Below are positions 7,202 through 37,074 of a stretch of DNA of 64,000 nucleotides, piece by piece. Under the pieces are notes generated by a model. It did not search any database. It was given only the letters and a program-made list of their open reading frames with translations, and had not been told where the DNA came from. A program made the translations under genes and the position numbers. Each line of letters starts with the position of its first letter. Positions within the stretch are counted from its first letter, which is position 1. Source of the stretch: an uncultured delta proteobacterium (GTDB taxonomy: Bacteria > Desulfobacterota > Binatia > HRBIN30 > BPIQ01); contig CAVXGR010000013.1 in assembly GCA_963761335.1 (NCBI GenBank), positions 96,001 through 160,000 of the forward strand. The letters are read 5' to 3'.

Positions 7202-7703
7202 GGGGACAGGCTACTTTTCGGCTTCACCGCCGCAACTGCTCACCAGCGACTCCAGCGCCGAAAAGTAGCCTGCTTCGAAAATCTATTGGGGAAGGTCTGG
7301 CGGAGCTCCCCGCGCTTGGCGTGGAGGCTTATCGCCCCGGAGGGGCGCAGGCATGTAGCCCCGGGTGTTAACCCGGGGACCGCGTTCCGATTGGCCCAGA
7401 TCAGCGCCCCGCAGGGGCGCAGGCGCAGAGGCCGCGTGAATCACCTCGATGAGCTTCCCAGGCACCCAGCGGTGATCATCGGCGTACAGGCGTGACATCG
7501 ACGAAAACTTGCCCGCGCCCCTGGCGGGGCGCGCCTGACGGAGCGTGCATTCTTCCCCGGGTTTCACCCGGGGCTACACGCCACCGCCCCTCCGGGGCGA
7601 ACTTCAGCCGGGCGAGGACCTCCAAGTCTCTTGCCGGCGCAGATCCCCAGCCTCATTTTCATCGTCTATTGGTGAGCCGCAAGGCTCATGACGCACTGTC
7701 CCC
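7202..7703 (-). mobile_element. REP doublet interrupted by a ~426-bp non-coding element (7270-7695) carrying GCCCCGGAGGGGCG-type REPs
   Basis: The inserted part is a near-identical inverted copy of 36584-37010, and its ends are shared with 17055-17339. Confidence 0.75.
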
Positions 7704-7746
7704 ATCGTGGATTTACATCTTCTCCCTTGGAACGCTAAATAGGGGC

Positions 7747-9303
7747 GTGCTCCGTGCTCCGACTCTCGGTGAGCTCCTGCGCGTTGCCGCCCGCGAGGCG
7801 CCGGAGACAGAGGCGTTCCGCTACGGCGACGAGTCGATCACCTACCGCGACTGGGACCTGCTCGCCGATCACATGGCCGCGGCGCTGGCGGCGCGCGGTG
7901 TCCGCCGCGGCAGCGTGGTGGCGCTGCTGCTGCCCTCGACGCCGCTCTACCCGGTAGCCTATCTGGGCGCGGCGCGGCTGGGAGCGGTCACCACGGGGAT
8001 CAACATTCGCTACCGGCGAACGGAGATCGGCCACATCCTGCAGCGCAGCGGCGCCTCGGTGCTGATCGCCGTGAAGAGCTGGCGGGATGCGGATTTCCGC
8101 GCCGCCATCGAGCCGTTGCGCGCCGAGCTCGAGGAGCTGAGAGAGATCGCCTGGCTCGCGGCGGACGAGGTGTGCGCCAGCACCGCCGGCGTGGTCGGCG
8201 CACTTGCGGCAGGAGAGGTGGCGCCGGCCGTCGCCGTGGAGCCCGACGATGCAGTGGCCATCGTCTTCACCAGCGGCACCACCGGAGTGCCCAAGGGCGC
8301 TTGGTTCACACACCGGAACCTGATGGCGGTGGCCGAGATCGACACCCGACGCTACGCCAGCGGCGTGCCGCCATTCGCGAAGCATCTGGTCGCCGGCCTG
8401 CCCTTTGCGCACATCGGCACCATGGCCCGCATGGCGCTTCACATCGCCCACGGCAATGCCATGCTGATCCACGACACCTTCGATCCCGCCGCCGTGCTGG
8501 CGACGATCGAGGAGGAGAAGCTGACCCATCTCGGCGGCATCCCCACGCAGATCGTCATGCTGCTCGACCACCCGCAGCGAAGCCAGCACGACCTCTCGTC
8601 GCTCCGCTCCGTTCTTCTCGGCGGCGCGCCGTCGTCACCGGCGCTGATCCGGCGCGTGCAGGAGACGCTCGGCGTCTCTGTCAGCGTGCGCTACTCCTCT
8701 ACCGAGGTGGGCATTGCCACGGCGTCTCTCCCTGACGACTCGCCGGAGATCCTGACGACAACCGTAGGCAAGGCCACACCAGGCGTCGAGCTGCGCATCG
8801 TCGGCGGCGACAACCGTGCGCTCGCCGCCGGGGAGGTCGGCGAGGTCGTGGTGCGCTCGCCGGCAACCATGCGCGGCTACTGGCGCGATGCGGAAGCGAC
8901 TGCCGCCGCCATCGACGCCGAGGGTTGGGTGCACACCGGCGATATGGGGTACCTCGATCCACAGGGCTATCTGCACCTGCGCGGGCGGCAGAGCGAGATG
9001 TTCATCCGCGGCGGCTTCAACGTCTACCCGGCCGAGATCGAAGATCTGCTCGCCAAGCACCCGAAGGTGGCGCGCGCCGCGGTCGTCGGTGTTCCGCACG
9101 AGGTCTTCGGCGAGATCGGCTGGGCTTTCGTCGTGCCGCGCGATCCATCCTCGCCCCCCGCGCTCGAGGAGCTGCGCGCCCACGTCGGGGAAGCCCTGGC
9201 GAGCTTCAAGCGCCCCGACGGGGTGACCGTTCTCACGGAGCTACCGGTCACGCCGATGTTCAAGGTGGACAAGCGCGCGCTCCGCGAAATGAGAAGGTGT
9301 TGA
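7747..9303 (+). CDS. Class I adenylate-forming enzyme (acyl-CoA ligase)
   Basis: Motifs FTSGTTGVPKG, YSSTE, HTGD, IRGGFNVYP and KVDK. Start placed at GTG 7747 because the longer ORF runs through the repeat. Confidence 0.9.
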   Translation: MLRAPTLGELLRVAAREAPETEAFRYGDESITYRDWDLLADHMAAALAARGVRRGSVVALLLPSTPLYPVAYLGAARLGAVTTGINIRYRRTEIGHILQRSGASVLIAVKSWRDADFRAAIEPLRAELEELREIAWLAADEVCASTAGVVGALAAGEVAPAVAVEPDDAVAIVFTSGTTGVPKGAWFTHRNLMAVAEIDTRRYASGVPPFAKHLVAGLPFAHIGTMARMALHIAHGNAMLIHDTFDPAAVLATIEEEKLTHLGGIPTQIVMLLDHPQRSQHDLSSLRSVLLGGAPSSPALIRRVQETLGVSVSVRYSSTEVGIATASLPDDSPEILTTTVGKATPGVELRIVGGDNRALAAGEVGEVVVRSPATMRGYWRDAEATAAAIDAEGWVHTGDMGYLDPQGYLHLRGRQSEMFIRGGFNVYPAEIEDLLAKHPKVARAAVVGVPHEVFGEIGWAFVVPRDPSSPPALEELRAHVGEALASFKRPDGVTVLTELPVTPMFKVDKRALREMRRC

Positions 9304-9392
9304 AGGGGACTGGCTCCTGGCGCAGAGGCTCTGTGGTTGAGGCAGACGACGCGCCAACGAAAAGGTCCCTGTTCCCGAACCGAACTGGGCCC

Positions 9393-9920
9393 GTGACAGA
9401 GACACACAGCAAAGTAGCCTGGACATATGTAGCGCTTTCGGCGGGTGTCTCTGCGCTGCTGGTGATCGGCGTGGCGTGGTACGCAGGCATCATCCAAGAT
9501 GTCATGCTTGGTAAGGCGGCCCTGGCCACTGTACTTGACTTCAGTGTCGATCTGACTAAGCGCGCGCAGCACTCAGCAGCCTTCAGTGTCAAACATCCCG
9601 GTCGATATTCAGTGAATGTTGAGCTGACATTGAGAAACGGCCCGCAGGGCGGGCGAGACGCAACCAAGAGTTTTGGGTTCGGCGGTGAGGTGTCAATTGC
9701 AGGCAGGTCAGGGAAGGTTCTGCTGAGCCGAGCGTTTTCCAGAAGACTGCGCGGTGACGAAGTGGGCTTTAAGTTGCTCGACCTGACCGCCGACGAAGTG
9801 GGCGGCCCTGGCGATAAGGTCTTTAGGCTTCGCCTCGACGTCACCCCGCAGTTCAAGGAGCATTACTCCGAGGCGACGATCTACGTCAGAAGAGAACGAC
9901 ACTTCGCTTTGACGTACTGA
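9393..9920 (+). CDS. Hypothetical protein with one N-terminal TM helix
   Basis: Hydrophobic segment VAWTYVALSAGVSALLVIGVAWY; visibly lower GC than neighbours; flanked by REP doublets. Start uncertain. Confidence 0.55.
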   Translation: MTETHSKVAWTYVALSAGVSALLVIGVAWYAGIIQDVMLGKAALATVLDFSVDLTKRAQHSAAFSVKHPGRYSVNVELTLRNGPQGGRDATKSFGFGGEVSIAGRSGKVLLSRAFSRRLRGDEVGFKLLDLTADEVGGPGDKVFRLRLDVTPQFKEHYSEATIYVRRERHFALTY

Positions 9921-10002
9921 AGTGAACTCCGTTTGGAGTGAAGTAGCGTACGCCGATTCCGAGGGGCGGCACCTCGCTGAAGGTGGGCGCGGGACGTGAA
10001 GC

Positions 10003-10074
10003 GGGGACAGGCAACTTTTGCGGCCGAGATCGCTACTTGGAGGATACATCGCCCGGCAAAAGTAGCCTGTCCCC
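10003..10074. repeat. Uninterrupted GGGGACAGGCAACTTTT...AAAAGTAGCCTGTCCCC REP doublet
   Basis: Inverted arms; overlaps the 3' end of the ligase gene. Represents the empty site for the CAG-inserting element. Confidence 0.8.
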
Positions 10075-11646
10075 TTCCGCCATGCGCCGCAGCGCCGCCT
10101 TTTCCACCTTTCCGGTTCCGGTGCGCGGCACGTCGGCGTCGGCGATGAGAAACACCTGGCGCGGCACCTTGTAGCTGGCGAGGTTCTCGCGGCAGAAGGC
10201 GATCAGCTCGTCGGCCGTAGCGCTGGCGCTGGGCTGCAGCACGACGAAAGCGGCGACGTTCTCGCCGCGCGTCGGGTGCGGCACGCCGACCACGTGCGCC
10301 GCCTTCACGGCCGGGTGGCGGCCGAGCGCCTCCTCGACCTCGACGGCGGCGACGTTGACGCCGGCGGTCTTGATCACGTCCTTGAGGCGGGTGGCGAAGT
10401 GCAGATAACCGTCCTCGTCGAAGTAGCCGAGATCGCCGGTCCGGAAGAAACCTTCGGCGTCGAAGGTCTGTGTCCGCGGCAGGCGGTAATAGCCCTCCAT
10501 CAGCGTCGGCCCCTTGACGTGAATCTCGCCGCTCTCCCCCTGGGGCACCTCGGCGCGGGTCCCGGGATCGACGATGCGCACCTCCATTCCCGGCAGCGGC
10601 CGGCCGAAGCTGCCGGCGCGTACCGGCTCCGGATCGTCCCAGCGGGTCGCCGTGACCACCGTCGCCGTCTCCGACATGCCGTACACGCCTATGGCCTGAT
10701 GATCCGTGCCGAGAAGGCGCGGCGCCAGGGCGTGATAGGTGCCCTTCTTCAGGCGCAGGCGGCGGCGGCCGAACTCGGGATGCTCGAGCAGCGGTCCGGC
10801 CTGATGCCAGCCGGCCATCAGCGTGCAGCCCTCGCGCTCCAGCAGATCCAGCGCGCCACCGGCCTCCACCGATTCCTGCAGGACGATACGGCCGCCTCCG
10901 GCCAGCGTCGCGAGGGCGCCGAGGACGAATCCTCCACTCCAGAACAGCGGCATGTGTCCCCACCAGGCATCTTCCGCGCCGAGGCCGAAGCACTCGGCGA
11001 TGCGCCGGCCCGAGGTCGCCAGGGCGGCGTGGGCGTGCAGCACCGCTTTCGCCTGCGCCGTCGTTCCCGAGGTGAAGAAGATCGTCGCCCAGTCGACCGG
11101 GGACACCGCCGCCTCGACAGCGTCGAGAAAGGCGTCTTCGACGTCGTCGCGGAGATCGCCCCAGCGCTCGGCGCCCGCCGCCTCTCCCTCGAGAAGAGCG
11201 ATCCGGCGCAGCGCCGGCGCCGCCGCGGCGCGCAGCAACCCCGGTGTGGCGCTGCGCATTTCGGGGAGAATGTCGTTCAGGCTGGCGACATAGTCGTGCT
11301 TGCGAAACTCCGGCATACTCACCAGCATCTGCACATCGGCGTGGCGCAGCGCGTAGGCGATCTCGTCGCGCTTCCAGAGCGTCGAGAAGGGGACCAGCAC
11401 GGCGCCGAGGCGCAGGGCCCCGAAGGCGATCGGCAGCCATTCGGTGCGGTTCGAGCAGAGGAAGCCGACCCGCGTGCCCTTGCCGGCGCCGGCGGCGAGG
11501 AGCTTCTTGGCCGCGGTCCGGCTGGCGGCGCGCAGCTGCGCCCAGCTGAGCCGCGCCGTCACCTCGGCGCGCGGCGCGTAGGCCAGCGCCTCGCGCTCGG
11601 GGAAGCGCGAGGCGCAGGAATCGAGAAACCCGCCGAGCGTCTCCAT
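10033..11646 (-). CDS. Class I adenylate-forming enzyme (acyl-CoA ligase)
   Basis: Motifs FFTSGTT, YGMSET, RTGDLG and TGKVEK. Start METLGG overlaps the stop of the hydratase. Confidence 0.9.
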   Translation of the reverse strand: METLGGFLDSCASRFPEREALAYAPRAEVTARLSWAQLRAASRTAAKKLLAAGAGKGTRVGFLCSNRTEWLPIAFGALRLGAVLVPFSTLWKRDEIAYALRHADVQMLVSMPEFRKHDYVASLNDILPEMRSATPGLLRAAAAPALRRIALLEGEAAGAERWGDLRDDVEDAFLDAVEAAVSPVDWATIFFTSGTTAQAKAVLHAHAALATSGRRIAECFGLGAEDAWWGHMPLFWSGGFVLGALATLAGGGRIVLQESVEAGGALDLLEREGCTLMAGWHQAGPLLEHPEFGRRRLRLKKGTYHALAPRLLGTDHQAIGVYGMSETATVVTATRWDDPEPVRAGSFGRPLPGMEVRIVDPGTRAEVPQGESGEIHVKGPTLMEGYYRLPRTQTFDAEGFFRTGDLGYFDEDGYLHFATRLKDVIKTAGVNVAAVEVEEALGRHPAVKAAHVVGVPHPTRGENVAAFVVLQPSASATADELIAFCRENLASYKVPRQVFLIADADVPRTGTGKVEKAALRRMAEGDRLLLPGDVSSK

Positions 11647-12440
11647 CACTTCCCGGTGAACCGCGGCGGCCGCTTCTCGGCAAAGGCGCGCACCGCTTCC
11701 TTGTGGTCCTCGGTCTCGCCGAGAACGCCCTGGGCCAGGGCCTCCGCCTCGACTGCCTGGCGAAAGTCGGCGCGCGCGTTGCGTTCGAGCAGACCGCGCC
11801 CCAGGCGCGTCGCCTGCGGCGGCTGCGCGGCGATCGCCGCGGCGATCGCCGCCACCCGCTCGGCGAAACGCTCGACCTCGACCACCTCGGTGACCAGACC
11901 AATCCGCAGAGCCTCCGCCGCCGCCACAGGCTCCGCGGTCAGGAAGATGCGCTGCGCATTGGCGAGGCCGACACGGCGCGGCAGCAGGTAGGTGGTACCG
12001 CAGTCGGGCACGAAGCCGACCTTGACGAAGCTGAAGACGAAACGCGCCGCCGCCGATGCCACGGCGAAATCGCAGGCGAGCACGTAGGCGCACGCCATGC
12101 CGGCGGCGACGCCGTTCACCGCGGCGATCATCGGCTTCTGCCGCTGCAACAGCCGCTCGATTACACCGGCACCGTGGAGATTGCGCTGCCGGCCGACGAG
12201 CGCCGTGCGTCCCAGCCGATCGCCGCGCCCCATCAGCTTCAGGTCGGCGCCCGCCGAGAAGGCCCGGCCCGCACCGGTCATCACGATGGCGCGAATCGCT
12301 TCGTCGGCGTCCGCCTGGGCAACCAGATCCGCCAGCCGATCGCCCATCTCCGGCAGCAGCGCATTGAGCGCCTCGGGCCGGTTGAGAGTGATGGTGGCAA
12401 CCCCGCCGGCGGCTTCGTAGGTGACATGGGCTGAGGTCAT
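11646..12440 (-). CDS. Enoyl-CoA hydratase/isomerase family protein
   Basis: Motifs LNRPEALNAL, AFSAGADL, KPMIAAVNG and PDCG. Confidence 0.92.
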   Translation of the reverse strand: MTSAHVTYEAAGGVATITLNRPEALNALLPEMGDRLADLVAQADADEAIRAIVMTGAGRAFSAGADLKLMGRGDRLGRTALVGRQRNLHGAGVIERLLQRQKPMIAAVNGVAAGMACAYVLACDFAVASAAARFVFSFVKVGFVPDCGTTYLLPRRVGLANAQRIFLTAEPVAAAEALRIGLVTEVVEVERFAERVAAIAAAIAAQPPQATRLGRGLLERNARADFRQAVEAEALAQGVLGETEDHKEAVRAFAEKRPPRFTGK

Positions 12441-12560
12441 ACCCTCACCCTGACCCTCTCCCGCAAGGGAGGCGGGAGAGGGGACCTGTTACCGTGCCGG
12501 TGGAGCTTCCCCGCTGCGATCCCGGGTTCCCTCTCCCGCTCTTTCCGCGGGGGTTACCAT

Positions 12561-12905
12561 GTACGGCATGGTGATTGCCGCGGGGAGCTCGAACGCGAGG
12601 GGGGTTGGTAGCCTCCGCTCCCGCGGGCCTCAAGGACCATATTCCCCTCGTCGCCTCCCTGCGGTCGGCGCCGATTCCTCGCGGAACAAAATCGTCCTTG
12701 ACCCCCGCTCCGCTGCGGCTGGTGGGGGCTCCTATGGCGGAAAGGGAGACCTTTCCGCCTGCGGACAAGGCGGAACGCTCCACCCGGAGCAGAGGGGGCA
12801 GAGGCAACGCGTGCCTTATCGCGCCGAAAAGGGGAGCCTCCTTCTCAGAAACGCGAGACGCCACAGTGGCGTTCAGCAACGCTGCATCGCAGGCAGCAAA
12901 ACGGA
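12561..12905 (+). ncRNA. Candidate bridge/seek RNA region (left non-coding end of IS110)
   Basis: About 350 nt non-coding, GC-rich with hairpins, lying downstream of the -10 half of the junction promoter. Function inferred from IS110 biology. Confidence 0.45.
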
Positions 12906-12916
12906 AGGAGACTCCC

Positions 12917-14008
12917 ATGCGAAGATTAGTTCTAAAGCCCGTAGGCAAGCAACACCTCCCAACGCGCCCCGCCGCCGGCGAGAGCGTGATCATCGGTGTC
13001 GATCTGTCGCGCTCGAAATGGGTCTACACCTGTCGCTGGAGTGGGCTGGAGCAGCGGCGGCTGAGCACCCCCGGCGAGCTCTGCCACCTCCAAGCTCTGG
13101 CAGGCGAGTACCGGGGCTACGGCTGCCACGTGCACATCGTCTACGAGGCCTGCGGCTTCGGCTACGAGATCGCCTGGTGGGCGCAGGCGCAGGGACTCGA
13201 TGTGCTGGTGGTGCCGCCGAGCACCGTGGAGAAGGCACCCGGCAGCCACGTGAAGACCGATGGACACGACGCCAGCGGCCTGGCACTGCGCTACGAGAGA
13301 GGAATGCTCAAAGGCATCCACATTCCGGTCCGGAACTGTCACCAGCTGCGCCAGCTGTCGCGCACTTACGATGCCGCTCTGCGCGATCGCAAGAGACAGC
13401 AAGCCAGAGTGCGCATGCTGCTCCAAGAGCACGGATACATGCCGCCTGCGCCGAGCGCCGGCTGGTCGACGCTCGGGCAGTGGCTGGCGGCCCAGGAGTT
13501 CGCCCCCGCCCTCAAGGCCTGTGTGGCGCAGCTGCTCATCCTGCGCCAGAGCGCCGCGATGAGCACCAAGATGCTCAAGACAGAGCTGCTTGGGGTCGCT
13601 GCCCTGCCGCAGTACAAGCCACTGGTTCAGGCGCTCACCGCGCAGTCCGGTGTGGGCAAATTCACCGCGATTCGCTTCGTGCTCGAGGTGGGCGACATCC
13701 ATCGATTTGCCACCGCCGACTCCATCGTCAACTTCTACGGCCTCGCGCCCCAGGAGCACAGCACCGGCGACACCGTGCGACGGGGTCGGATTCGCAAGTG
13801 CGGTCCCGCCTTCATTCGCTCGTGGATCATCCAGTGCGCCTGGGTTGCTCGCGGTACCCGTGGCGATGCCGAGCTGCGGGAGTTCTACCAGAGACTGTGG
13901 CCGCGGGTCGGCAAGAAGAAGGCCATCGTGGCGGTGGCGCGCAAGCTGGCACTGCGGCTGCGAGCTCGCTGGCTCGCCTACGAGCGGAGCCAGGCGCAAG
14001 CGGCCTAG
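12917..14008 (+). CDS. IS110-family transposase/recombinase
   Basis: RuvC-like DEDD motifs (IIGVDL, YEACG, KTDGHD) and C-terminal domain (GVG...GDIHRF...GLAP.EHSTG...AVARKL). AAGGAG RBS before ATG 12917. Confidence 0.93.
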   Translation: MRRLVLKPVGKQHLPTRPAAGESVIIGVDLSRSKWVYTCRWSGLEQRRLSTPGELCHLQALAGEYRGYGCHVHIVYEACGFGYEIAWWAQAQGLDVLVVPPSTVEKAPGSHVKTDGHDASGLALRYERGMLKGIHIPVRNCHQLRQLSRTYDAALRDRKRQQARVRMLLQEHGYMPPAPSAGWSTLGQWLAAQEFAPALKACVAQLLILRQSAAMSTKMLKTELLGVAALPQYKPLVQALTAQSGVGKFTAIRFVLEVGDIHRFATADSIVNFYGLAPQEHSTGDTVRRGRIRKCGPAFIRSWIIQCAWVARGTRGDAELREFYQRLWPRVGKKKAIVAVARKLALRLRARWLAYERSQAQAA

Positions 14009-14315
14009 ACTCTTGTTCATCGACCACCAACCCGCTCCGCATCCGGCAGGCTGTCCCCTCGAGCGACTGCGTCTGGCCCTCTGGTTGCGCCGCAAGGTGC
14101 CAACGTTCGGGAGTTTTGCAGCGCTCGGCAATATCCAACGGGACGAATGATAACTTGGTGACCGTCCCCACACGAGGACGCGCACGAATAGAAGACTCGC
14201 CACCGACGGATCGGAGCCCAGAACAGAGCGAGGGCGTACATGACCACTTGACAAGAGCCGTCATAGAAGAGGGTCAGGGTGAGGGCCAAACCCACCGAGT
14301 TACGGCGCAGCATCT

Positions 14316-15512
14316 TCACCCGCATGCCCCCGCGGCGCGCAGCGCCTCGATCTCCTCGTCCGACTTGCCCAGCTGCCGCAGCACCTCCAGGGTGTGCTCG
14401 GCAAGCCCGGGCGGCGGGATGCGCAGCGAGCCGGGCGTGTCGCTCATGTGGATGGGGACGTTCATGGTGCGAAACGGACCGTGCTTCGGATGCTCCCACT
14501 CGGCGACCGAGCCGATCGCCTTCAGCTGCTCCATCTCGAAGAGCTCCTTCAAGTCGTTCACCCGGCACGAGGGCACGTCGTAATCGGTGCACAGCTTGAT
14601 CCAGTGATCGCGCCCGCGCGTGCGGAAGATCTCCTGCAGGACGGAGACGACCTCGTCTCGGTTCTGACAGCGCACCGTGTTGCTGGCGAACTTCGGGTTC
14701 TCGAGCAGGTCCTCGCGGCCGAGCGCCGCGCAGAGGCGTTTGAAGAAGGCATTGGAGAGGCAGGCGACGATGAAGTAGCCGTCGTTCGCCTCGAAGGCCT
14801 GGTAGGGAACCAGATCCGGATGTCCATTGCCGAACTTCTGGTACTCGTGCCCGGTGTTCAGGTACGAGGTCGAGATGTCGGCGAGGAGCGAGATCACCGC
14901 ATCGAGCATGGTGAGATGGATGCGCTGGCCGACGCCGCTCTCCTTGCGGTGATACAGCGCCAGGGCGATGGCGTAGGCGGCATAGATGCCGGAGGAGATG
15001 TCGGCAACCGGGCCGGCGGCCTTGACCGGCGGCCCACCGGGAAAGCCGGAGAGGCCCATCATGCCACCGGTGGCCTGCAGGATGAGGTCCATGCCCGGGT
15101 TCTGCGCGATCGGGCCCGTCTCTCCGAAGGCGGTGATGGAGGTGTAGATGAGGCGCGGATTGACGGTGCGCAGGTGCTCGTAGCCGAGGCCGAGCCGATC
15201 CATGACGCCGGGGCGGAAGTTTTCCACCAGCACGTCGGCGCTCTTCACCATCTCCTCGAGCAGCTTCACTCCGCCCGGCTTCTTGACGTCGACGCCGACC
15301 GACTTCTTGTTGCGGTTCAGGCCCCAGAAGTTGAAGCTGCCGATGATCGGATCCTGTCCGCGCGCGTGGCGAATGGCGTCGCCGCGACCCGGCTTCTCGA
15401 TCTTCCACACCTCGGCACCCATGTCGCCGAGGAGCGTCGTGCACCACGGCCCGGCGGCCTGGTGGCTCAGGTCGATGACGCGCACGCCCTTAAGCGGTCC
15501 GCGGTTCTCCAT
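14316..15512 (-). CDS. CaiB/BaiF family III CoA-transferase
   Basis: Motifs PLKGVRVIDLS, NRNKKS, ENFRPG and GMDLILQA. Confidence 0.92.
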   Translation of the reverse strand: MENRGPLKGVRVIDLSHQAAGPWCTTLLGDMGAEVWKIEKPGRGDAIRHARGQDPIIGSFNFWGLNRNKKSVGVDVKKPGGVKLLEEMVKSADVLVENFRPGVMDRLGLGYEHLRTVNPRLIYTSITAFGETGPIAQNPGMDLILQATGGMMGLSGFPGGPPVKAAGPVADISSGIYAAYAIALALYHRKESGVGQRIHLTMLDAVISLLADISTSYLNTGHEYQKFGNGHPDLVPYQAFEANDGYFIVACLSNAFFKRLCAALGREDLLENPKFASNTVRCQNRDEVVSVLQEIFRTRGRDHWIKLCTDYDVPSCRVNDLKELFEMEQLKAIGSVAEWEHPKHGPFRTMNVPIHMSDTPGSLRIPPPGLAEHTLEVLRQLGKSDEEIEALRAAGACG

Positions 15513-17040: not shown

Positions 17041-17046
17041 GGGGAG

Positions 17047-17403
17047 GGGGACAGTGTGTCATGAACCTGCGGTTCACCAACAGACCATGAATAGGGACGG
17101 CGTCCTGATTCACTGATCAGACACTTGCGATGATATTTCCGCGCCGCGGGTGCGGGTCTCCTCTCCCCGCATCTTTCCGCGGGGAGAGGATCAAGGTGAG
17201 GGGTCCCTGTCTCGCTGAAAGCTCGTGAATCTCCACGGCCTTCACAGAGATCGGCACCCTCACCCTGACCCTCTCCCGCCAGTAATGCGGGAGAGGGAAC
17301 GCACCCCCGAAGTGCACACCCAACAGATGTTCGAAGCAGGCAACTCTTGCCGCTGATCTTGCAGCGACAGGGTGAATCTGGGCAGCAAAAGTAGCCTGTC
17401 CCC
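17047..17403 (+). mobile_element. REP doublet interrupted by a 285-bp variant of the CAG-inserting element (17055-17339)
   Basis: Same ends as 36584-37010 (TGTGTCATGAACCTGCGGTTCACCAACAGAC ... CCCAACAGATGTTCGAAGCAG) but the interior holds CCCTCACCCTGACCCTCTCCCGC-type REPs. Confidence 0.7.
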
Positions 17404-17409
17404 ATTTGG

Positions 17410-18003: not shown

Positions 18004-18048
18004 TTCGCCTCACTCCTTTCGCGCGTATTGGCGCCCAGGATAGTCCAA

Positions 18049-20900: not shown

Positions 20901-20903
20901 TCG

Positions 20904-25999: not shown

Positions 26000-26029
26000 G
26001 CCAAGAGTAGTGATCTTGTCGGAGCAATT

Positions 26030-26233: not shown

Positions 26234-26349
26234 GTTCGTCTCGAATCAGCCAACGGGGGCTTCTTCTCCGCGCGGCTCAGCGCCTGGGCGTTCGCCTTGT
26301 CCTGGCAGGGTGGGAGGACGCGTGGTACGCTGACAATCCGAGGTGGCCC

Positions 26350-27304: not shown

Positions 27305-27450
27305 TGGATCATGCCACCCTCTGCCTAAAACAACCCCTTGGGCGGCGCCAGGGTACATCGGGAGTCCGGCATGATTCGAACGCAAGGTCCCGCCCATATC
27401 CACCTGGTCGTTCGCGACACCCCCGGTAGCATGGACTCGCTTCCGGCAAA

Positions 27451-27481
27451 GCGAGGCTGCTGCCGAGCCAGATACGTCTCT
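27451..27481 (+). repeat. 31-bp direct repeat, right boundary of integron island
   Basis: GCGAGGCTGCTGCCGAGCCAGATACGTCTCT. Confidence 0.85.
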
Positions 27482-27544
27482 CGGATTTTCGTGGCGGAAG
27501 CGGCGAGACGCCGCTTCTACTCAACCCGAAAACTCGAGAGCCCG

Positions 27545-29227: not shown

Positions 29228-29318
29228 GGCCGATCTTTCGCACGCTGCCCGGAAAAATGCGAGCCGCCCCAAGCGCGGGTTTGACCATGGTGAGGCGCTG
29301 TTGGTAACTGGCGAGCGC

Positions 29319-30455
29319 ATGGGCGCGATTGCCATTGCCGGCGTCGGCGAGACCCGCTACGGGCGGCGGCTCGGCCGCGATCTCGGCAGCCTGGCGCTGG
29401 AGGCGGCCGAAGCAGCCGCCGCGGACGCGGGCCTCGACCCCGGCGACATCGACGGCATCATCGCTCCCTGGGCGGAGTACGCGGCGCGCCATGAGCTGGC
29501 GCGCAATCTCGGCATCGACGGCGCCTTCTTCTCGGCATCCTCGATGTCCGGCGGCGCCGGCATCGTCAGCGCCCCGTTGCTGGCGCGACTGGCGATCGAC
29601 GCCGGACTGGCGACCACGGTGCTCTGCGTGCACGCCATCGCCTGGGGCTCGGAGCGCCGGGGGAACGTCGGCCTGCCGCATGCGGCCATGCGCATGAAGG
29701 CGATGTTCGAGATTCCCTTTGGCTGGTACCCGCAGATCGTGCAGTTCGCCGGCATGGCGCGGCGGCACATGGAGCTCTACGGCACCACCCAGGAGCAGCT
29801 CGGCGCCGTTGCTCTCGCCTGCCGGCGGCACGCCGCGCTGACCGAGAACGCCATCCTGCGCACGCCCTTGTCGCCGGCCGAGTACCTGCAGGCGCCACTG
29901 CTCGCCGACCCGTTTCGCGCCGCCGACTGCTGCCTGGTCAACGACGGTGCCGCCGCCTTCGTGATGACCAGTCTGGAGCGTTCCCGCGACCTGTCGCGTC
30001 CGCCGGTCCGCGTGCTCGGCGCCGCCCAAGGCGTGGTTCCCGGCGGCGAGTACTCCACCCTGCGACCGCAGTATCTCTGCACCGCCGCCATTCACTCGGG
30101 ACCGCGCGCCTTCGGCGAGGCCGGGGTCGCTCCGAACGACATGGACTTCGCGCAGATCTACGACAACTTCACCTCCATGGTGCTCGAGCAGCTCGAAGAC
30201 CTGGGCTTTTGCCCCAAGGGCGAGAGTGGCCCCTTCGTCGAGGGCGGCCGCTGCGAGATCGGCGGCGTCCTGCCGATCAACACCTCGGGGGGACAGCTGG
30301 CGCAGGGTTTCCTGCTCTCGGCGAACCTGGTCGTCGAGGCGGTGCGCCAGCTGCGCGGCGAGTGCGGCGACCGCCAGGTGAACGCCGCCCGTCTGGGCCT
30401 GGTCACCGGCTATACCGGAGCGGAGCACGCCACGGTGATCCTGGGGAGGGACTGA
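29319..30455 (+). CDS. Thiolase-like (SCP-x/lipid-transfer type) protein
   Basis: Motifs AIAGVGET, DCCLVNDGAAA, IYDNF, NTSGGQL and EAVRQLRG. Confidence 0.88.
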   Translation: MGAIAIAGVGETRYGRRLGRDLGSLALEAAEAAAADAGLDPGDIDGIIAPWAEYAARHELARNLGIDGAFFSASSMSGGAGIVSAPLLARLAIDAGLATTVLCVHAIAWGSERRGNVGLPHAAMRMKAMFEIPFGWYPQIVQFAGMARRHMELYGTTQEQLGAVALACRRHAALTENAILRTPLSPAEYLQAPLLADPFRAADCCLVNDGAAAFVMTSLERSRDLSRPPVRVLGAAQGVVPGGEYSTLRPQYLCTAAIHSGPRAFGEAGVAPNDMDFAQIYDNFTSMVLEQLEDLGFCPKGESGPFVEGGRCEIGGVLPINTSGGQLAQGFLLSANLVVEAVRQLRGECGDRQVNAARLGLVTGYTGAEHATVILGRD

Positions 30456-30458
30456 CGC

Positions 30459-30881
30459 ATGGATACTTCCGGCCTGCATATTCCCGACGTGGAGTGGGAG
30501 CCGACGCGACCATTCTGGGAAGGATGCCGGCAGCGGCAGCTGCGTCTGCCGCGCTGCGCCTGTGGCGAGTACGTCTGGTATCCGCAGCCGCGCTGCCCGA
30601 GATGCCGCGGCGATCGCATCGACTGGGTCGCGATGAGCGGGCGGGCGACAGTCTTCACGTGGACCACGGTCTACCGCAGCTTCGTGCCCGGACACGCGGA
30701 TCGCGTTCCCTACGTCGCCGGGATCGTCGAGCTGGCCGAGGACCCGAAGCTGCGTCTGGCCACCTTTCTTCCCGACGTATCGGCCGACTCCTTGCAGGTG
30801 GGCATGCCCCTGCGCGTCGACTTCGAGACGATTCGCGAAGGCATCGTGCTGCCGGTCTTCCGACCGCTGGCTGAGCGCTGA
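30459..30881 (+). CDS. Zn-ribbon/OB-fold (DUF35) protein
   Basis: PFWEG...RCACG...CPRC and VPYVAGIVEL; sits next to the thiolase. Confidence 0.9.
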   Translation: MDTSGLHIPDVEWEPTRPFWEGCRQRQLRLPRCACGEYVWYPQPRCPRCRGDRIDWVAMSGRATVFTWTTVYRSFVPGHADRVPYVAGIVELAEDPKLRLATFLPDVSADSLQVGMPLRVDFETIREGIVLPVFRPLAER

Positions 30882-30887
30882 AGAGCG

Positions 30888-31562
30888 ATGCTCTACCTCC
30901 ACGAGATCATCGACATCATCGGCGACGGGCAGCAGTCCTATCTCGACACGGTGGCGGCGCGGGCGCGGCACTCCGAGGCCCAGGGCATCTCCCGCATGAT
31001 GGGGACATGGAAGGTCATCGGCAGCACCGCCCGCTGGCCGCAGGTGGTGAATCTCTGGGAGATGGACAGCTGGGACCACTGGGCGGGCAGCCTCGAGCGC
31101 CAGTTCCTTCCCGAGAGGAAAGACCCGGATCTGGCACCTTGGTGGTCGGCAGCAACCAAGTGGCGCAGCGGCGGCTTCGATCGCATTCTCGAGCCGGCAG
31201 CGTATTCGCCGACGCGCGATCAGCTGCGCCAGCGCCAGCTCCACGCCTGGGTCTGCGAGCACACCCTGGTGCGCCTGGCGGCCGGTGAGCCGGAGGAGTA
31301 TCTGCGCCGGGTCGGCGATCATCTCCGGCCGCTGCTCGAGAGCCGCGGCCTCATCCTCATGGGCGCCTACTCGGTTCCCATGCGGCTCGGCGAGGCGTTG
31401 CTCATCTGGGCCGCACCGAGCTTCCGAGCCCTCTGCTCACTCCACGAAAAGCGACGAGATGACAAGGGGTTAGCCGAATGGCAGGAGTCGTCTAGGGCAA
31501 CTGTCAGGAAGAGCGAGACGATGTGGCTGGTGCCCTCGGAGGCGTGCTTCTTCCATCCTTGA
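30888..31562 (+). CDS. Hypothetical protein (NIPSNAP-like tandem domains)
   Basis: LYLHEII...STARWPQVVNLWE pattern; operonic with the thiolase. Confidence 0.6.
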   Translation: MLYLHEIIDIIGDGQQSYLDTVAARARHSEAQGISRMMGTWKVIGSTARWPQVVNLWEMDSWDHWAGSLERQFLPERKDPDLAPWWSAATKWRSGGFDRILEPAAYSPTRDQLRQRQLHAWVCEHTLVRLAAGEPEEYLRRVGDHLRPLLESRGLILMGAYSVPMRLGEALLIWAAPSFRALCSLHEKRRDDKGLAEWQESSRATVRKSETMWLVPSEACFFHP

Positions 31563-31571
31563 GCGGGCGCA

Positions 31572-31647
31572 GGGGACAGGCTTCTTTTCGGCGCCAACGC
31601 CGTTCAAGGAAGCACCGAGCAGCTCGCCGAAAAGATGCCTGTCCCCG
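31572..31647. repeat. GGGGACAGG...CCTGTCCCC REP doublet
   Basis: GGGGACAGGCTTCTTTTCGGCG/CGCCGAAAAGATGCCTGTCCCC; further copies at 9305-9376 and 35706-35783. Confidence 0.8.
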
Positions 31648-31889
31648 ATGAGCGGAACGAGGCGGAGGGGGCCGGTGGGCAGCCCGGAGGGGGAGGGGGG
31701 CTGCCCACCGCAGGAGAAAGAAGGGAAACAAGCAGCTGAAGACAAGGGGCCTATTCGTCAGCTACACGGGTAATGACGAGGGCGGTGGAACTTCATTCAA
31801 CGGTCCCAAAAAACTTCCATTCGCTTTTCGCCGTCGGGCTGGGTAGAAGATTCCGACAAGTCCAAAAAGTCTTGCCCTCCAGGGGTCCC

Positions 31890-33023
31890 ATGCCACTCAA
31901 TTCCGTCCGCCACGCCTGGCAGAAGCTGCCCGCGCGGGTCCGTTCGACAGCGACCACGGTCATCAAGGTGGTCATCACCGTGGCCGCTTTCTACCTCCTG
32001 CTGACGCACGAGGTGAAGGTCGAGTCCGGCCAGCACGTGATGGCCTTCCGGGCCATTCTCAACTACCTGCCGCAGATCAACGCCCGCATATTCTGGACCT
32101 TCGTCGCTATCGCCACCCTCCTCAAGGTGATCGGCATCGTCGCCTCGATGTACCGCTGGCATCTCCTGCTGATCGGCCAGGGAGTCCGCTTTCCCTTCCG
32201 CCACCTTGCCGGATCCTTCATGGTGGGCCGCTTCATCGGCACCTTCCTGCCGTCGACGATTGGGCTCGACGGCTACAAGCTGTACGATGCCGCCCGTTTC
32301 AGCGGCCGTACCGCCGGCGCCAGTGCCGCCACGGTCGTCGAGAAGATCCTCGGGCTCGCCGGCATCTTTCTCACTTTCCTGATCACCTTCCCGCTCGGCT
32401 ATCAGATCCTCGGCGGCCACGCCGGCTGGGTTGCGCTGCTGACGATTCCGATGGCGCTGGCAATCGTCGGAGTGGTGATGGCGCTGATCCTGCGCCCGAG
32501 CATCCTCACCTGGATAACCCTGCGGCTGCCCTTCGCGCGCCATCCGCGCCTCGAGGGCCCTGTGCAGAAAATCACCCGCGCCGCCTCCGCGTACGGCGGC
32601 CAGGCTCGCCTCATCCTCGTCGCCGCGGCTCTCAGCTTCATCGTGCACTTCTGCACCGCGTCCCTCTACTACTTCACCGCTCTGGCGATCGGGGTGATGC
32701 ACGCCAACTTCTGGGAGGTCACCTTTGCCTCGACCATTCAGGTGTTTGCCACCGTAATCAGCCCCTTCACCATCGCCGGCGAGGGGGTGCGCGAGATCGT
32801 GCAGACGCTTTTGCTGGCACACCGCATCGGCACGTCGCAGTCGATCATCTCTGCGGCGCTGGGCTTCTGGGCCGCGGAAGCGCCGACGCTGGTGGGCGGC
32901 TTCATCTATCTGCTGCGGCCCTCCGATTATCGGCCGGCGTTCGTCGAAGTGACCGAGGTCGGCCACGACGACGATACGGAGGCGGAGGTCACTGTCATCG
33001 AGAAACGGCGCGCCGCGCAGTGA
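31890..33023 (+). CDS. Lysylphosphatidylglycerol synthase TM-domain (flippase-like) protein
   Basis: RWHLLL, FLPSTIGLDGYK, VVEKILG and PFTIAGEGVRE; multi-TM. Confidence 0.82.
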   Translation: MPLNSVRHAWQKLPARVRSTATTVIKVVITVAAFYLLLTHEVKVESGQHVMAFRAILNYLPQINARIFWTFVAIATLLKVIGIVASMYRWHLLLIGQGVRFPFRHLAGSFMVGRFIGTFLPSTIGLDGYKLYDAARFSGRTAGASAATVVEKILGLAGIFLTFLITFPLGYQILGGHAGWVALLTIPMALAIVGVVMALILRPSILTWITLRLPFARHPRLEGPVQKITRAASAYGGQARLILVAAALSFIVHFCTASLYYFTALAIGVMHANFWEVTFASTIQVFATVISPFTIAGEGVREIVQTLLLAHRIGTSQSIISAALGFWAAEAPTLVGGFIYLLRPSDYRPAFVEVTEVGHDDDTEAEVTVIEKRRAAQ

Positions 33024-33715
33024 CGGCTCGGCGGGAGCCGTTGCGCATGGAGCTCGGGGAAACGGCGGGCGAGGCCGCTCCGCCCGCGGAGCAGACGACG
33101 GCGATGCGCCGGCTGGTGCTGGTGCGTCACGGGGAGACGGTGGGACAGTCGAGCATCCGCTACTACGGGCGCACCGACGTGGCCCTCAGCGATCTGGGCC
33201 GGCGCCAGATGGAACGCGTCGGCGCCGCGCTCGCCGGAGAAGCCTTCGACGCCGTTTACACCAGCCCGCTGCAACGCGCCCTGGCCAGCGCCCGTCTGGT
33301 CGCCCCCGGGATCGAGCCACAGGCGATCGCCGGCTTCGCCGAGGTGAACTTCGGGCGCTGGGAGGGACTCACGCGAGAGGAGATCGAGGCTCTCGAGCCC
33401 GATCTCTATCGGCGCTGGCGCGTCGCCGACGTCGACTTCATCTATCCCGATGGCGACGCCGTCGCCGGCTTCCGCGCCCGGGTGATCAACGCCTTCCGCA
33501 CCCTCCTGCCGTCCGCCCCGGAGCACTTGCTCATCGTCGTCCATACCGGCGTCATCCGCACCATCCTGAGCGAGCTCCTGCGGCTGCCGAATCCCGACGG
33601 CGCGGCTTGGCGGATCGATCTGGCCTCCATCCACGTGGTCGCCGCCGCCAGTGACCGGCGCGGCTGGCGCCTCGAGATCATGAACGACACGCGCCACCTG
33701 GAAGGGATCTCATGA
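33020..33715 (+). CDS. Histidine phosphatase family protein
   Basis: Motifs LVRHGET, SPLQRA, EVNFGRWEG and VVHTGVIR. The true start may be downstream. Confidence 0.9.
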   Translation: MTARREPLRMELGETAGEAAPPAEQTTAMRRLVLVRHGETVGQSSIRYYGRTDVALSDLGRRQMERVGAALAGEAFDAVYTSPLQRALASARLVAPGIEPQAIAGFAEVNFGRWEGLTREEIEALEPDLYRRWRVADVDFIYPDGDAVAGFRARVINAFRTLLPSAPEHLLIVVHTGVIRTILSELLRLPNPDGAAWRIDLASIHVVAAASDRRGWRLEIMNDTRHLEGIS

Positions 33716-35703
33716 AGCGGCAGAGACTCGCCGGCTTCGCGGCCTTCAACCTGCCGTTCGGACGCGCCATCGACGAGCTCGAGCTGTCGCCGATCAAGGC
33801 GGTCGAGCTGCGCGCCAGCCGGCTCTCCGACGTCGTCTCCCTGGCGCAGGGGATCCCCAGCTTCGACACCCCGGCGCCCATCAAGCGCTACGTGATGCAC
33901 AAGATCGCCGAGGGCGCCTGCGCCAAGTACTCGCTGACGCCCGGGCTGCCACAGCTGCGCGAGCTGATCAGCGAGAAGCTGCACGCCGAAGGCATGAGAT
34001 ACGACCCGGACGGCGAGATCATCGTGACCTGCGGCAGCATCGAGGCGATCAGCGCCACACTGCTGGCCTCTGTGGGGCCCGGCGACGAGGTCCTGGTCGC
34101 CTCTCCCACCTACGCCTCATACATTCCGGCAATTCGTCTCACCGGCGCCACCCCGCGCTTCGTGCCTCTCAACGAGGACGCCAACTTCGACCTCGACCCG
34201 GACGCCATCGGCGATGCCATTACCCGCCGCACGCGTGCCATTCTGCTGAGCAATCCCAACAACCCGACGGGCACCATCTACTCGGCCGTGGAGACGGAGA
34301 GGATGATGGCGCTGGCCGCCCGACACGATCTGTTGGTGATCACCGACGAGGTCTACAAGGACTTCATCTATACCAACGAGCCTCCCGGCAACCCGGCGAC
34401 CATGCCGCAGCACCGCGATCGCGTGGTGCGCGTGTGCTCGTTCTCCAAGGCCTACGGCATGACCGGATGGCGCGTCGGGTTCCTGCACACGGCGCGCGAG
34501 CGCGCCGACGCGATCCTCAAGGTGCACGACGCCCTGGTGACCTGCGCGCCTGTGGTCTCGCAGTACGCCGCCATTGCCGCTCTCGAGTTCGGCGACCCGT
34601 ACATCCAGGAGTTCCGCAAGGAGTTCCGCCGGCGGCGCGAGCGCATCATCCAGCGGCTCGACGCCCTGCCCCAGGTGTTCGACTACCAGAAGCCGAACGC
34701 CTCCTACTTCGCCTTCCCGCGCATCAAGGACACCGTCGCCATGGCGCGCGACTCGCGGGCACTGGCCGACGACATCCTCGAGCGCGCCCGCGTTGCCCTG
34801 GTCCCGGGGGTTGCCTTCGGACCCACCGGCGAGGCGCACCTGCGCTTCTGCTACGCCCGCGACATCGAGGACATCGACCGCGCCTTCGACCGGCTCACCG
34901 ACTACTTCGCCGGACGGGCACCGCGCACCTACTCGCTGCCGGCGCCGCCGGCGCCGCCGCAGCGGCGCTCGCGCCTGCGCGCCCTCGGCGTCGACGTGCT
35001 GCACGTGCTGGCGCGCCTCTATCTGCTACGCCGGCGGCCGCGGGTGATCGCCATCGCCGGCGGCCACGGCAAGACGGTTCTCAAGCGCACGCTCACCGAG
35101 CTCCTCGGCCGCCGCCTGCGCGTCCGCTCCAACCCGCTCTCGTACAACACCGAGGTGGGGCTCGCCTTCTCGATTCTCGATACCTCGTTCCGCTCGCGCC
35201 GGCCGCTGTCGATCGCCGCGGGGCTGGCGCGCGGGCTGAAACATGCGCTGCTTCCCGACCCGATCGATGCGCTGATCCTGGAGCTGGGCGTGCGCAAGCC
35301 GAAGGACATGCGCCGCCTGCTCGACGTGGTGCGTCCCGACATCGCGGTAATCACCCGCCTGGCCCCGAGCTACTCGGAGGACCAGGCGACCCTGGCGGTG
35401 ATGCGCGCCGAGATGAAGGAGCTGATCGACGCCATCGAGGCGCGGGGTGGCACGCTCGCCTTCTGCAGCGACGACCCATCGCTCGCCGAGCTGGCGCCGC
35501 GCGGCGGCGGGGCACACGCCTTCGCCAAGTCGAGCCTCGTCGAGCGCGACGGCCGCGCGCTGCTGTGCGTGGACGGCCGCGAGTATCCCGTGGGGCAGGA
35601 GATCGTCGGCGAGAGCAGCCTGTATGCGCTGGCGGCGAGCGTGATCGTCGCCCGCGCCATCGGCCTCGACGAGGAGACCATCCGCGGCTTTCTCGCCGCC
35701 TGA
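33712..35703 (+). CDS. Class I/II PLP aminotransferase fused to a MurF-like ATP-binding domain
   Basis: NPNNPTG, TDEVY and SFSKAYGMTGWRVG, then VIAIAGGHGKT...SYNTEVG...LELG...PDIAVIT. Confidence 0.85.
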   Translation: MKRQRLAGFAAFNLPFGRAIDELELSPIKAVELRASRLSDVVSLAQGIPSFDTPAPIKRYVMHKIAEGACAKYSLTPGLPQLRELISEKLHAEGMRYDPDGEIIVTCGSIEAISATLLASVGPGDEVLVASPTYASYIPAIRLTGATPRFVPLNEDANFDLDPDAIGDAITRRTRAILLSNPNNPTGTIYSAVETERMMALAARHDLLVITDEVYKDFIYTNEPPGNPATMPQHRDRVVRVCSFSKAYGMTGWRVGFLHTARERADAILKVHDALVTCAPVVSQYAAIAALEFGDPYIQEFRKEFRRRRERIIQRLDALPQVFDYQKPNASYFAFPRIKDTVAMARDSRALADDILERARVALVPGVAFGPTGEAHLRFCYARDIEDIDRAFDRLTDYFAGRAPRTYSLPAPPAPPQRRSRLRALGVDVLHVLARLYLLRRRPRVIAIAGGHGKTVLKRTLTELLGRRLRVRSNPLSYNTEVGLAFSILDTSFRSRRPLSIAAGLARGLKHALLPDPIDALILELGVRKPKDMRRLLDVVRPDIAVITRLAPSYSEDQATLAVMRAEMKELIDAIEARGGTLAFCSDDPSLAELAPRGGGAHAFAKSSLVERDGRALLCVDGREYPVGQEIVGESSLYALAASVIVARAIGLDEETIRGFLAA

Positions 35704-35828
35704 GCGGGGACAGGCTCCTTTTCGGCGCCGGCGGGCTACATTCAAAAGACCGCCTGTCGACGCCGAAAAGGCACCTGTCCCCAACTCCGCTTGCGTAGCC
35801 GGGGCGATCCGGGCAAATCGCCTGCGGC

Positions 35829-36575
35829 ATGCACCTTTCCGTCTACAACTGCCTTCTGCTGCTCGGTGGCGGACTGCTGGCGGGCACCGTCAACACCCTC
35901 GCCGGTGGTGGATCGGTGCTCTCGGTGCCGCTGCTGGTGCTCGTCGGCCTGCCGGGGAACGTTGCCAACGGCACCAATCGACTGGGCATCTTCGTCCAGA
36001 ACGCCGTCGCCGCGGTGCGTTTCCGCGCCGAGGGCTTCTCGGGGTTCCGCTCCTCGCTTCCGGTCCTGCTGCCGATCGCCATCGGTTCGGCAGCCGGCGC
36101 CCTCGCCATCTCGCAGGTCGCCGACAAGACATTCGAGAAGCTGTTCGGTGTCGTCATGGTGCTGCTGCTCGTGCCGATGCTGCGCCGGCCGGCGCGCCCC
36201 ACCGCCGGCAGCTCGCGCCGTCACTCCCCGCGAACCACCTTTCTGATCTTCCTCGGCATTGGGCTCTACGGCGGCGCCTTTCAGGCCGGCGTCGGCATCG
36301 CCCTGATCCTGGCGCTGGCCTACAGCGGCTTCGATCTGGTGCGCGCCAACAGCATCAAGGTCGTGGTCAACGCGGCGCTCACCGCCGTCGCCGTGCCGGT
36401 GTTCGCCTTCAATCACCAGATCGAATGGATTCCCGGGCTCCTGCTCGCGGCGGGCTACTCCGCCGGAGCCACGCTCGGCGTGCGCCTGGCGGTGCGCGGC
36501 GGCGAGAAGGTCATCCGCCCCGTGCTCGCGGCCTCGGTCGTGGCTCTGGCGGGGCACATGCTCGGGCTGTACTGA
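35829..36575 (+). CDS. TauE/SafE (TSUP) family membrane transporter
   Basis: Motifs NTLAGGGS, ANGTN and GLYGGAFQAGVG. Confidence 0.88.
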   Translation: MHLSVYNCLLLLGGGLLAGTVNTLAGGGSVLSVPLLVLVGLPGNVANGTNRLGIFVQNAVAAVRFRAEGFSGFRSSLPVLLPIAIGSAAGALAISQVADKTFEKLFGVVMVLLLVPMLRRPARPTAGSSRRHSPRTTFLIFLGIGLYGGAFQAGVGIALILALAYSGFDLVRANSIKVVVNAALTAVAVPVFAFNHQIEWIPGLLLAAGYSAGATLGVRLAVRGGEKVIRPVLAASVVALAGHMLGLY

Positions 36576-37074
36576 GGGGACAGTGCGTCATGAGCCTGCG
36601 GCTCACCAACAGACGATGAAAATGAGGCTGCGGATCTGCGCCGGCAAGAGACTTGGAGGCTCTCGCCTGGGCGAAGTTCGCCCCGGAGGGGCGGTGGCGT
36701 GTAGCCCCGGGTGAAACCCGGGGAAGAATGCGCGCTCCGTCAGGCGCGCCCCGCCAGGGGCGCGGGCAAGTTTTCGTCGATGTCACGCCTGTGCGCCGAT
36801 GGTCACCGCTGGGTGCGTGGGAAGCTCATCGACTTGATTCACGCGGCCTCTACGCCTGCGCCCCTGCGGGGCGCTGATCTGGGCCAATCGGAACGCGGTC
36901 CCCGGGTTAACACCCGGGGCTACATGCCTGCGCCCCTCCGGGGCGATAAGCCTCCACGCCAAGCGCCGGTGCGCTCCGCCAGACCTTCACCCAACAGATT
37001 TTCGAAGCAGGCAACTTTTGCGGCCGAGATCCTTGCTCTCGCGAGATTTCGAGGCACAAAAGTAGCCTGTCCCC
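36576..37074 (+). mobile_element. REP doublet interrupted by the 427-bp CAG-inserting element (36584-37010)
   Basis: Inverted near-copy of 7270-7695; GGGGACAG-[element ending CAG]-GCAACTTTTGCGGCCGAGATC. Confidence 0.75.

Follow-up and report, generated by a model that had tools for sequence, protein, structure and literature searches.

IS621, a bridge-RNA (seekRNA) recombinase system of the IS110 family, has the core CT. Another member of the IS110 group, the insertion sequence (IS) ISPpu9 of Pseudomonas putida KT2440, inserts at an AG inside repetitive extragenic palindromes (REPs) and is bounded by two unequal boxes (PMC12288879). Its A box of 43 bp, AGATCACCCAGCCCTTCCGGGCTGCGCTGTCGCGCAGCAAACA, consists of AG, five nucleotides, the hairpin CAGCCC-TTCC-GGGCTG and a terminal CAAACA, and its B box of 16 bp, TTTTGTTTGATGAGAG, lacks an inverted repeat and contains TGTTTG, complementary to CAAACA (PMC12288879). 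The ssr9 gene lies between similar A'/B' boxes, either in tandem behind the transposase module, with which it shares one AG, or alone in other REPs, and its module is registered as the non-autonomous miniature inverted-repeat transposable element (MITE) MITEPpu9; transposase-dependent minicircles were detected for every box combination, and recombination between the boxes of adjacent modules was shown (PMC12288879). Here we describe a non-coding element that occupies one position of a REP in a 64,000-nucleotide stretch of DNA (the window, C13:96001-160000) from the draft genome of an uncultured delta proteobacterium (the source assembly, G000: 6.26 Mb, 68% GC, 29 contigs, 99% complete). An initial annotation had noticed this element in the window, and the observation is confirmed.

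We consider it highly probable that these elements are MITE-like miniature derivatives of the IS110 family, moved in trans by a bridge-RNA recombinase. Their anatomy, target behaviour and tandem structure, together with the enzyme of full-length relatives, agree with the ISPpu9/MITEPpu9 model (PMC12288879). The initial annotation had proposed a site-specific, non-autonomous element with swappable cargo and a recombinase acting in trans, and this is supported by the REP-specific flanks, the lack of any coding copy, the two cargos, A and B, and the IS110-family enzyme of the relatives. It had also taken the family to be undescribed, which holds for the particular sequence family; the kind of element had been described in 2025 as ISPpu9/MITEPpu9 (PMC12288879). 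The searchable literature turned up no IS110-derived miniature element besides MITEPpu9 (8 copies).

Ends, core and target site

The host REP is a hairpin of ~72 bp with arms GGGGACAGGCWACTTTTGC and GCAAAAGTWGCCTGTCCCC and a variable loop of ~30 nt between them. An intact, empty example of 72 bp (10003..10074) offers two unoccupied target arms and reads GGGGACAG|GCAACTTTTGCGGCCGAGATC at the site. At a filled site, the left target half GGGGACAG, with the AG core at its end (36576..36583, plus strand), is followed by an A-type copy of 427 bp (36584..37010, plus strand; left box 36584-36625, right box 36997-37010) that ends in TTCGAAGCAG, and then by GCAACTTTTGCGGCCGAGATC, where the right part of the host REP, GCAACTTTTGC ... 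GCCTGTCCCC, resumes (37011..37074, plus strand). A B-type copy of 285 bp (17055..17339, plus strand) lies between GGGGACAG (17047..17054, plus strand) and the right part of its host REP (17340..17403, plus strand); its left-box hairpin pairs GAACC with GGTTC, and its cargo is a different REP family (REP-B), as had been recognised in the initial annotation. The third, an inverted A-type copy of 426 bp (7270..7695, minus strand; left box 7653-7695, right box 7270-7290), has as its left target half CTGTCCCC, which is GGGGACAG on the element strand (7696..7703, minus strand); arm, loop and most of the second arm of its host REP (7202..7269) form the right target part on that strand. All three copies are lodged exactly between GGGGACAG and GCWACTTTT of the host REP, and the junctions at the empty and the three filled sites, the inverted one reverse-complemented, read as had been claimed. 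Pattern counts in the window were 3 for the right end, 2 for the left end and 12 for the REP arm, each against 0 expected (100 shuffles); the left-end consensus first drawn up misses the copy end at 7653-7695 because of an additional T in its hairpin loop.

Genome-wide blastn-short searches with both ends, a check proposed earlier, found 95 left and 108 right ends in G000. The left box (~45 nt) consists of AG, 5 nt, a 6-bp hairpin and then GATGAAAATG, with a terminus reading AG|TGCGTCATGAGCC...GATGAAAATG; five or six Watson–Crick pairs form in the stem (TGAGCC with GGCTCA or GGCTCG) in 86 of the 95 left ends. The right box (~14 nt) is GATTTTCGAAGC followed by AG and has no hairpin. Both boxes are kept while the interior, which we call the cargo, varies. 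The same AG dinucleotide stands at both junctions, one from the target and one from the element, without target duplication, and no junction feature other than AG is shared by the copies of G000, of two genomes from other families of the order (G013 and G026) and of metagenomes. Where a ‘CAG core or duplication’ had been suggested, a short core does exist, but across relatives it is AG and nothing of the target is duplicated. The direct repeat CCAACAGA, said to be shared by the ends, is indeed present in G000 but is specific to this genome, being absent from the relatives in G013 and G026. Terminal inverted repeats (TIRs) are absent, as had been stated, but a subterminal inverted repeat of 6 bp is present, with GAAAAT in the left box (87/95 left ends) and ATTTTC in the right box (104/108 right ends). 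The hallmarks of a classical MITE, terminal inverted repeats and a target-site duplication, are thus both lacking, nothing beyond the shared AG being duplicated.

This layout is that of ISPpu9 and MITEPpu9 (PMC12288879). Both systems have an AG core at the two junctions, lack duplication and use a single REP position. In each, the left box is long (43 bp in ISPpu9, about 45 nt in G000); its hairpin begins 7-8 nt downstream of the AG and has a loop of 4 nt, and a spacer separates this hairpin from a 3' arm that is complementary to the first bases of the right box. The right box is short in both (16 bp and about 14-16 nt, respectively), has no hairpin and is made up of arm, about 5 nt and AG; protein-less modules stand singly or head to tail with one shared AG (PMC12288879). 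The box sequences, however, are not similar, and about 100 copies are found here compared with 8 (PMC12288879). Whereas MITEPpu9 carries one small RNA (sRNA) gene, the present elements carry at least two unrelated cargos of other REP families and have no parent IS that could be found in G000, a 29-contig draft; unlike ISPpu9, they extend over several families within one order and over many organisms of metagenomes (PMC12288879).

The left box could otherwise pass for a structured RNA. Rfam gave no match to it (CATGAGCC-loop-GGCTC...GATGAAAATG), and a group II intron, a hammerhead or another ribozyme was rejected as an explanation of the ends, no such Rfam match appearing at E up to 1 and 0.5.

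The flanks point to one target. Fifty-four of the 95 left flanks read GGGGACAG, 24 belong to the right end of an upstream copy, and most of the other 17 differ from one of these two by a single base. The 108 right flanks comprise 56 with the REP-arm pattern, 28 with a following left end and 24 others. By eye, 3 of these 24 were variants of the left end, about 10 were variants of the REP arm and about 11 were unrelated; the 56 REP-arm matches stand among about 77 non-tandem right flanks. The octamer GGGGACAG itself occurs 433 times in G000, about 205 times before a REP arm, 65 times before an element and about 160 times before unrelated DNA. As these roughly 160 sites outside REPs are almost never used, recognition must extend beyond the AG on its right side. 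The two REP arms are occupied as often as their abundance predicts, and insertion is site- and orientation-specific within the REP palindrome.

The initial annotation had suggested independent insertions on the grounds that host REP interiors differ, and a wider comparison agrees. Mean loop identity is 0.53 among 37 filled REPs and 0.55 among 53 empty ones, and only one of 666 pairs of filled-REP loops exceeds 0.85, that pair being an assembly duplicate; filled REP loops are as diverse as empty ones, so the insertions were independent. Element orientation relative to GC skew (50-kb windows; 23/14 versus 19/21) showed no bias in this draft genome. Among the short assembled contigs of four public DNA runs from one study, none joined across an element or gave an empty allele. 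Nor was any circle or filled/empty polymorphism observed; head-to-tail arrays would yield the junction of a circle as well.

Copies, cargos and arrays across the genome

Both ends lie within 1.3 kb of each other in 78 elements of G000. Within 700 bp there are 76, of which 50 carry cargo A (elements of ~427 bp), 25 carry cargo B (~285 bp) and one is a form of B shortened to 178 bp by deletion. Longer end-to-end spans either cover two separate elements or reflect tandem expansion of hairpins within the cargo, up to 1.2 kb, and left ends lacking a right end are truncated copies. No G000 copy has coding capacity, long end-to-end pairs included. The A-type copies have a median pairwise identity of 0.911 (30 compared) and the B-type copies one of 0.957 (18 compared), with 31% of B-type pairs above 0.97.

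The two cargos are unrelated to each other. Cargo A is made of GC-rich hairpin doublets, one of which scores as Rfam Acido-Lenti-1 (36900..36945, plus strand; 37.7 bits against a gathering score of 37; mirror match at 7333-7378, minus strand), and cargo B is built around the second REP family. The Acido-Lenti-1 match is one unit of the doublet repeated in cargo A, a simple pattern of which has 147 matches genome-wide, and the doublet expands in tandem to >1 kb within single elements (G000:C11:549318-550507; G000:C7:148709-149776). Here the motif behaves like a REP-type repeat carried as cargo rather than a single sRNA gene. Inside a hairpin of an A-type copy at G000:C15:349421, about 140-270 further on, sits another small element with TIRs GAGGCTGTCTCAAA ... 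TTTGAGACAGCCTC and a GTAG-type hairpin, and nesting at this locus is three levels deep.

The 78 elements form 63 arrays (51 singles, 9 doublets and 3 triplets), arranged head to tail with one AG per internal junction. Of the nine doublets, six have the order A–B, one has B–A and two have A–A. In mixed arrays such as C11:393960-394674 and C17:71673-72386, a younger B lies downstream of an older A in six of seven mixed doublets, from which new insertions seem to prefer the junction that retains the right half of the REP target. A single composite unit that transposes as A+B was rejected: A modules in A+B arrays are 0.863 alike compared with 0.915 for other A copies, and, as they are no more alike than the others, the doublets arose by separate insertions. 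Exchange of cargo by recombination between the boxes of adjacent modules, or by secondary insertion of a REP into the cargo, is plausible.

Stretches of 9 to 15 kb occur twice in the assembly at an identity of at least 90% (C1:1-11998/C5:460981-472979; C3/C13:232144-244590; C22/C18:1037658-1047554). These are probably redundant draft contigs, which would slightly inflate the copy counts.

Relatives with and without a transposase

The right-end 14-mer occurs 86 times in G000. Across the order it matched 6 of 52 genomes, and only G013 (4 matches) and G026 (3 matches) hold true small elements with the same ends. In a phylum sample it matched 9 of 401 genomes, singly in all but G000. It also occurs at 118 or more genome-contig loci; among the 118 listed no upstream left-box match held up, the three loose ones lying in unrelated low-GC sequence. 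The left-box hairpins of G013 and G026 show the compensatory changes GAAGCC/GGCTTC and GACC/GGTC, and the pair GAACC/GGTTC occurs in 2 of the 95 G000 copies. The G013 element is lodged in that genome's own REP, after ..AACAG, and its cargo is similar to cargo B. A plasmid BLAST of the left box and a scan of viral contigs gave nothing relevant.

Metagenomes were scanned with the left box, the base after GATGAAAATG being limited to C or T, which excludes cargos A and B. This found 71 loci in many different contexts, most of them elements of 85 to about 300 bp, several in tandem, with the general form [..AG] N4-5 CATGAGCC-loop-GGCTC..GATGAAAATG [variable hairpin] CATTTTC N3-5 AG. Six loci (L165, L184, L185, L186, L206 and L217) have the flank GGGGACAG. 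No open reading frame (ORF) family recurs beside the 71 loci, and none of them has an Rfam match.

Two of the 71 loci carry a transposase. The initial annotation had proposed to look for a long copy with a recombinase between the ends; G000 has none, and the metagenomes supply one complete (L169) and one partial (L153) example, both of the IS110 family. L169 runs from the flank GGGACAG (positions 9-15) through the left box TTCTTCATGAGCCTTTCGGCTC...GATGAAAATG, a 270-nt leader and an ORF of 426 amino acids to ATTTTCAAGGCAG; AAATTTTCAAGGCAG comes directly after the stop codon, followed by TCCCC. The search pattern covered neither the flank nor the right end of L169. Its ORF matches the Pfam domains DEDD_Tnp_IS110 (3e-25) and Transposase_20 (3e-23). 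In L153 about 190 nt separate the left box from a homologous transposase (45% identity), of which the contig retains 51 N-terminal residues before it ends.

The leaders of both loci repeat the sequences at the element's boundaries. Leader positions 133-142 of L169 read GGGACAGTTT, the flank plus the first element bases, and about 65 nt beyond it positions 209-216 read CAAGGCAG, identical to the right terminus at 1577-1584. L153 has the flank GGGGCAG|TT, and its aligned leader reads GGGGCAGTTT within the block GAGCCTGAGGGGCAGTTT, compared with GAGCCTGCGGGACAGTTT in L169, an A/G covariation between flank and leader. These repeats have the appearance expected of target and donor guides in a bridge RNA. 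Target flank first and element end second is also the order in which the IS621 RNA carries its target and donor guides. Like IS621 and other IS110/IS1111 bridge-RNA recombinases, L169 and L153 encode DEDD_Tnp_IS110 and Transposase_20 domains; unlike IS621, with its CT core, the present elements have an AG core, and the miniature ones lack the leader.

On this model, a DEDD recombinase and a bridge RNA, both supplied in trans, would join the right end, the AG and the left end into a double-stranded minicircle. The minicircle would then recombine, AG to AG, with GGGGACAG|GC of a REP arm, without duplication, one guide loop of the RNA reading the target and the other the element ends. For the present elements we infer circle formation and transposase dependence, which were shown for ISPpu9 (PMC12288879), and likewise that the leader acts as a guide, which enzyme moved the G000 copies and where it resides.

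A more distant IS110 homologue, 37% identical to the L169 transposase, is present in 3-4 copies in G050, of the same order (L224, L230 and L231). It lies between GGTTGTT-type octamer repeats and has the same box layout in a different sequence, its ends reading AG, hairpin CCTCGCGC-GGC-GCGCGAGG, AAGAAAC // GTTTCTT-AGG-AG.

Candidate enzymes and alternative explanations

Several points weigh against an IS110-family origin. The transposase was found in only two of the 71 metagenome loci, the ends of L169 are inferred from one copy and the guide covariation comes from two elements. No IS110-family gene bounded by these boxes is present in G000 (99% complete, 29 contigs), G013 or G026, the IS110-family genes that these genomes do contain having other ends, and no G000 contig ends at a box. 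No stand-alone G000 locus contains both expected guides, GGGGACAG(TG) and (T)CGAAGCAG, and examination of cargo B by eye as its own guide gave only short matches. The B-type copies are nonetheless young (median identity 0.957), although no partner was found in the assembly. The L169 protein has no close homologue in G000, where its best tblastn match (24% identity) is to the IS described next, and none at E up to 1e-30 in G013 and G026.

Pfam domain searches of G000 gave six DEDD_Tnp_IS110 matches, five of them also matching Transposase_20, five Y1_Tnp matches at four loci (two in one C12 locus) and three Y2_Tnp matches; there was no match to TnpB. By coordinates, no IS91-type Y2 gene adjoins an element end. 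Five of the IS110-family matches are near-identical copies of one IS1111-like IS of 1716 bp, present in the window at 12552-14267 (plus strand; ORF 12917-14011), which carries both domains and the subterminal inverted repeat CATGTACG, has the ends GGTTACCATGTACGG ... GAGCCGTCATAGA and uses GCGGG|AGAGGG within REP-B as its insertion site. B-type elements harbour two of the copies (G000:C7 about 73.1-74.9 kb; C18 about 1149.8-1151.8 kb), and the window copy sits in a stand-alone REP-B; among three compared copies, 2 aligned positions differ. A truncated relative of this IS accounts for the sixth match (G000:C4 about 120.4 kb).

It is improbable, if the least so of the three alternatives considered, that this resident recombinase, rather than a lost or unassembled cognate IS, moved the G000 copies. 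Such cross-mobilisation would suit the only intact IS110-family enzyme of the assembly, recently active in five copies, with two of them inside B-type elements that are themselves young. Its ends and its target are nevertheless unrelated to those of the element, and no separate guide locus was found in G000. Complementarity of its non-coding regions to the element target or junction was limited to 6- to 8-mers and was rejected as a guide; a shared 8-mer such as GGGGACAG is at chance level, since it is expected by chance at 68% GC.

We regard as very unlikely a Y1 HUH system, REPIN/RAYT-like (RAYT, REP-associated tyrosine transposase) or derived from IS200/IS605, in which a Y1 transposase of the genome would cut and paste single-stranded DNA 3' of NCAG. 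CGTC-tagged REPs exist, and a CGTC tetranucleotide likewise precedes the left-end hairpin, which is conserved through compensatory changes (GAGCC/GGCTC, GAACC/GGTTC, GAAGCC/GGCTTC and GACC/GGTC); the element terminus is GCAG, its position is 3' of ACAG, and the genome has five Y1_Tnp matches. As with REPIN/RAYT and IS200/IS605-derived elements, the copies are numerous, non-coding, intergenic and hairpin-bearing, with the enzyme not inside. Unlike in those elements, the hairpin is at the left end only, the conserved right end of 14 nt being hairpin-free; the target is two-sided and REP-specific; and there is neither a strand bias against GC skew, as far as the draft genome goes, nor any linkage to Y1 genes. 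The Y1 transposases were rejected as mobilisers, each gene being flanked by a different repeat and lacking both REP arms and element ends within 2 kb. A C15-type Y1 family is found in 32 of the 52 order genomes, yet of the two other genomes that contain the elements, G026 has no match to it and G013 a weak one (1.3e-21); TnpB is unmatched in G000, and the full-length relatives encode an IS110-family transposase, not Y1.

Least probable of all is a tyrosine or serine integrase module whose joined ends would be attP-like and whose REP target attB-like with a short common core. In its favour, a short identical core stands at both junctions, no target is duplicated, and integrase-driven elements typically accrete in tandem at one site. 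Against it, no recombinase gene recurs beside the left box in the 71 metagenome loci, an IS110-family transposase is the sole enzyme located between such boxes, and the end layout matches ISPpu9 point by point (PMC12288879). This model is disfavoured rather than rejected, no integrase search having been made in G000. Both the HUH/RAYT and the integrase models fit worse than IS110, each failing at least one tested feature.

Two of the Y1 loci (G000:C15:202207-203349 and G000:C12:558519-559924) encode a 346-amino-acid, IS200-like Y1 transposase with a C-terminal extension, flanked by inverted repeats of 30 to 45 bp (GGGGACGTAGTTTCATCTGTTTCA), of which a 60-bp hairpin version occurs at C5:30758; this protein family is multi-copy in 32 of the 52 order genomes. 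At G000:C11:377165-377806, a 199-amino-acid RAYT-like Y1 gene has REPs of a third family (GGGAGCGCGGCC..., 110 genome pattern matches) on both sides, which is the classical REP/RAYT arrangement.

Taken as IS110-derived miniature elements, the copies in G000 indicate that such elements can become a genome's main repeat (about 100 copies). The family is distributed over one order of Binatia-type soil bacteria and also occurs in many organisms of peat and soil metagenomes. It amounts, too, to a natural experiment on the donor requirements of a bridge-type recombinase: some 45 nt at the left end and some 14 nt at the right are enough, and the cargo between them is free, from 85 bp to >1 kb. There is, we think, a small chance that the G000 copies are orphan donors of a bridge recombinase, about 100 copies with about 60 nt of ends and neither guide RNA nor enzyme, whose partner is truly absent. 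They would then have been moved by a distantly related recombinase or by a guide RNA from elsewhere, and bridge-type recombinases could be hijacked across subfamilies in nature.

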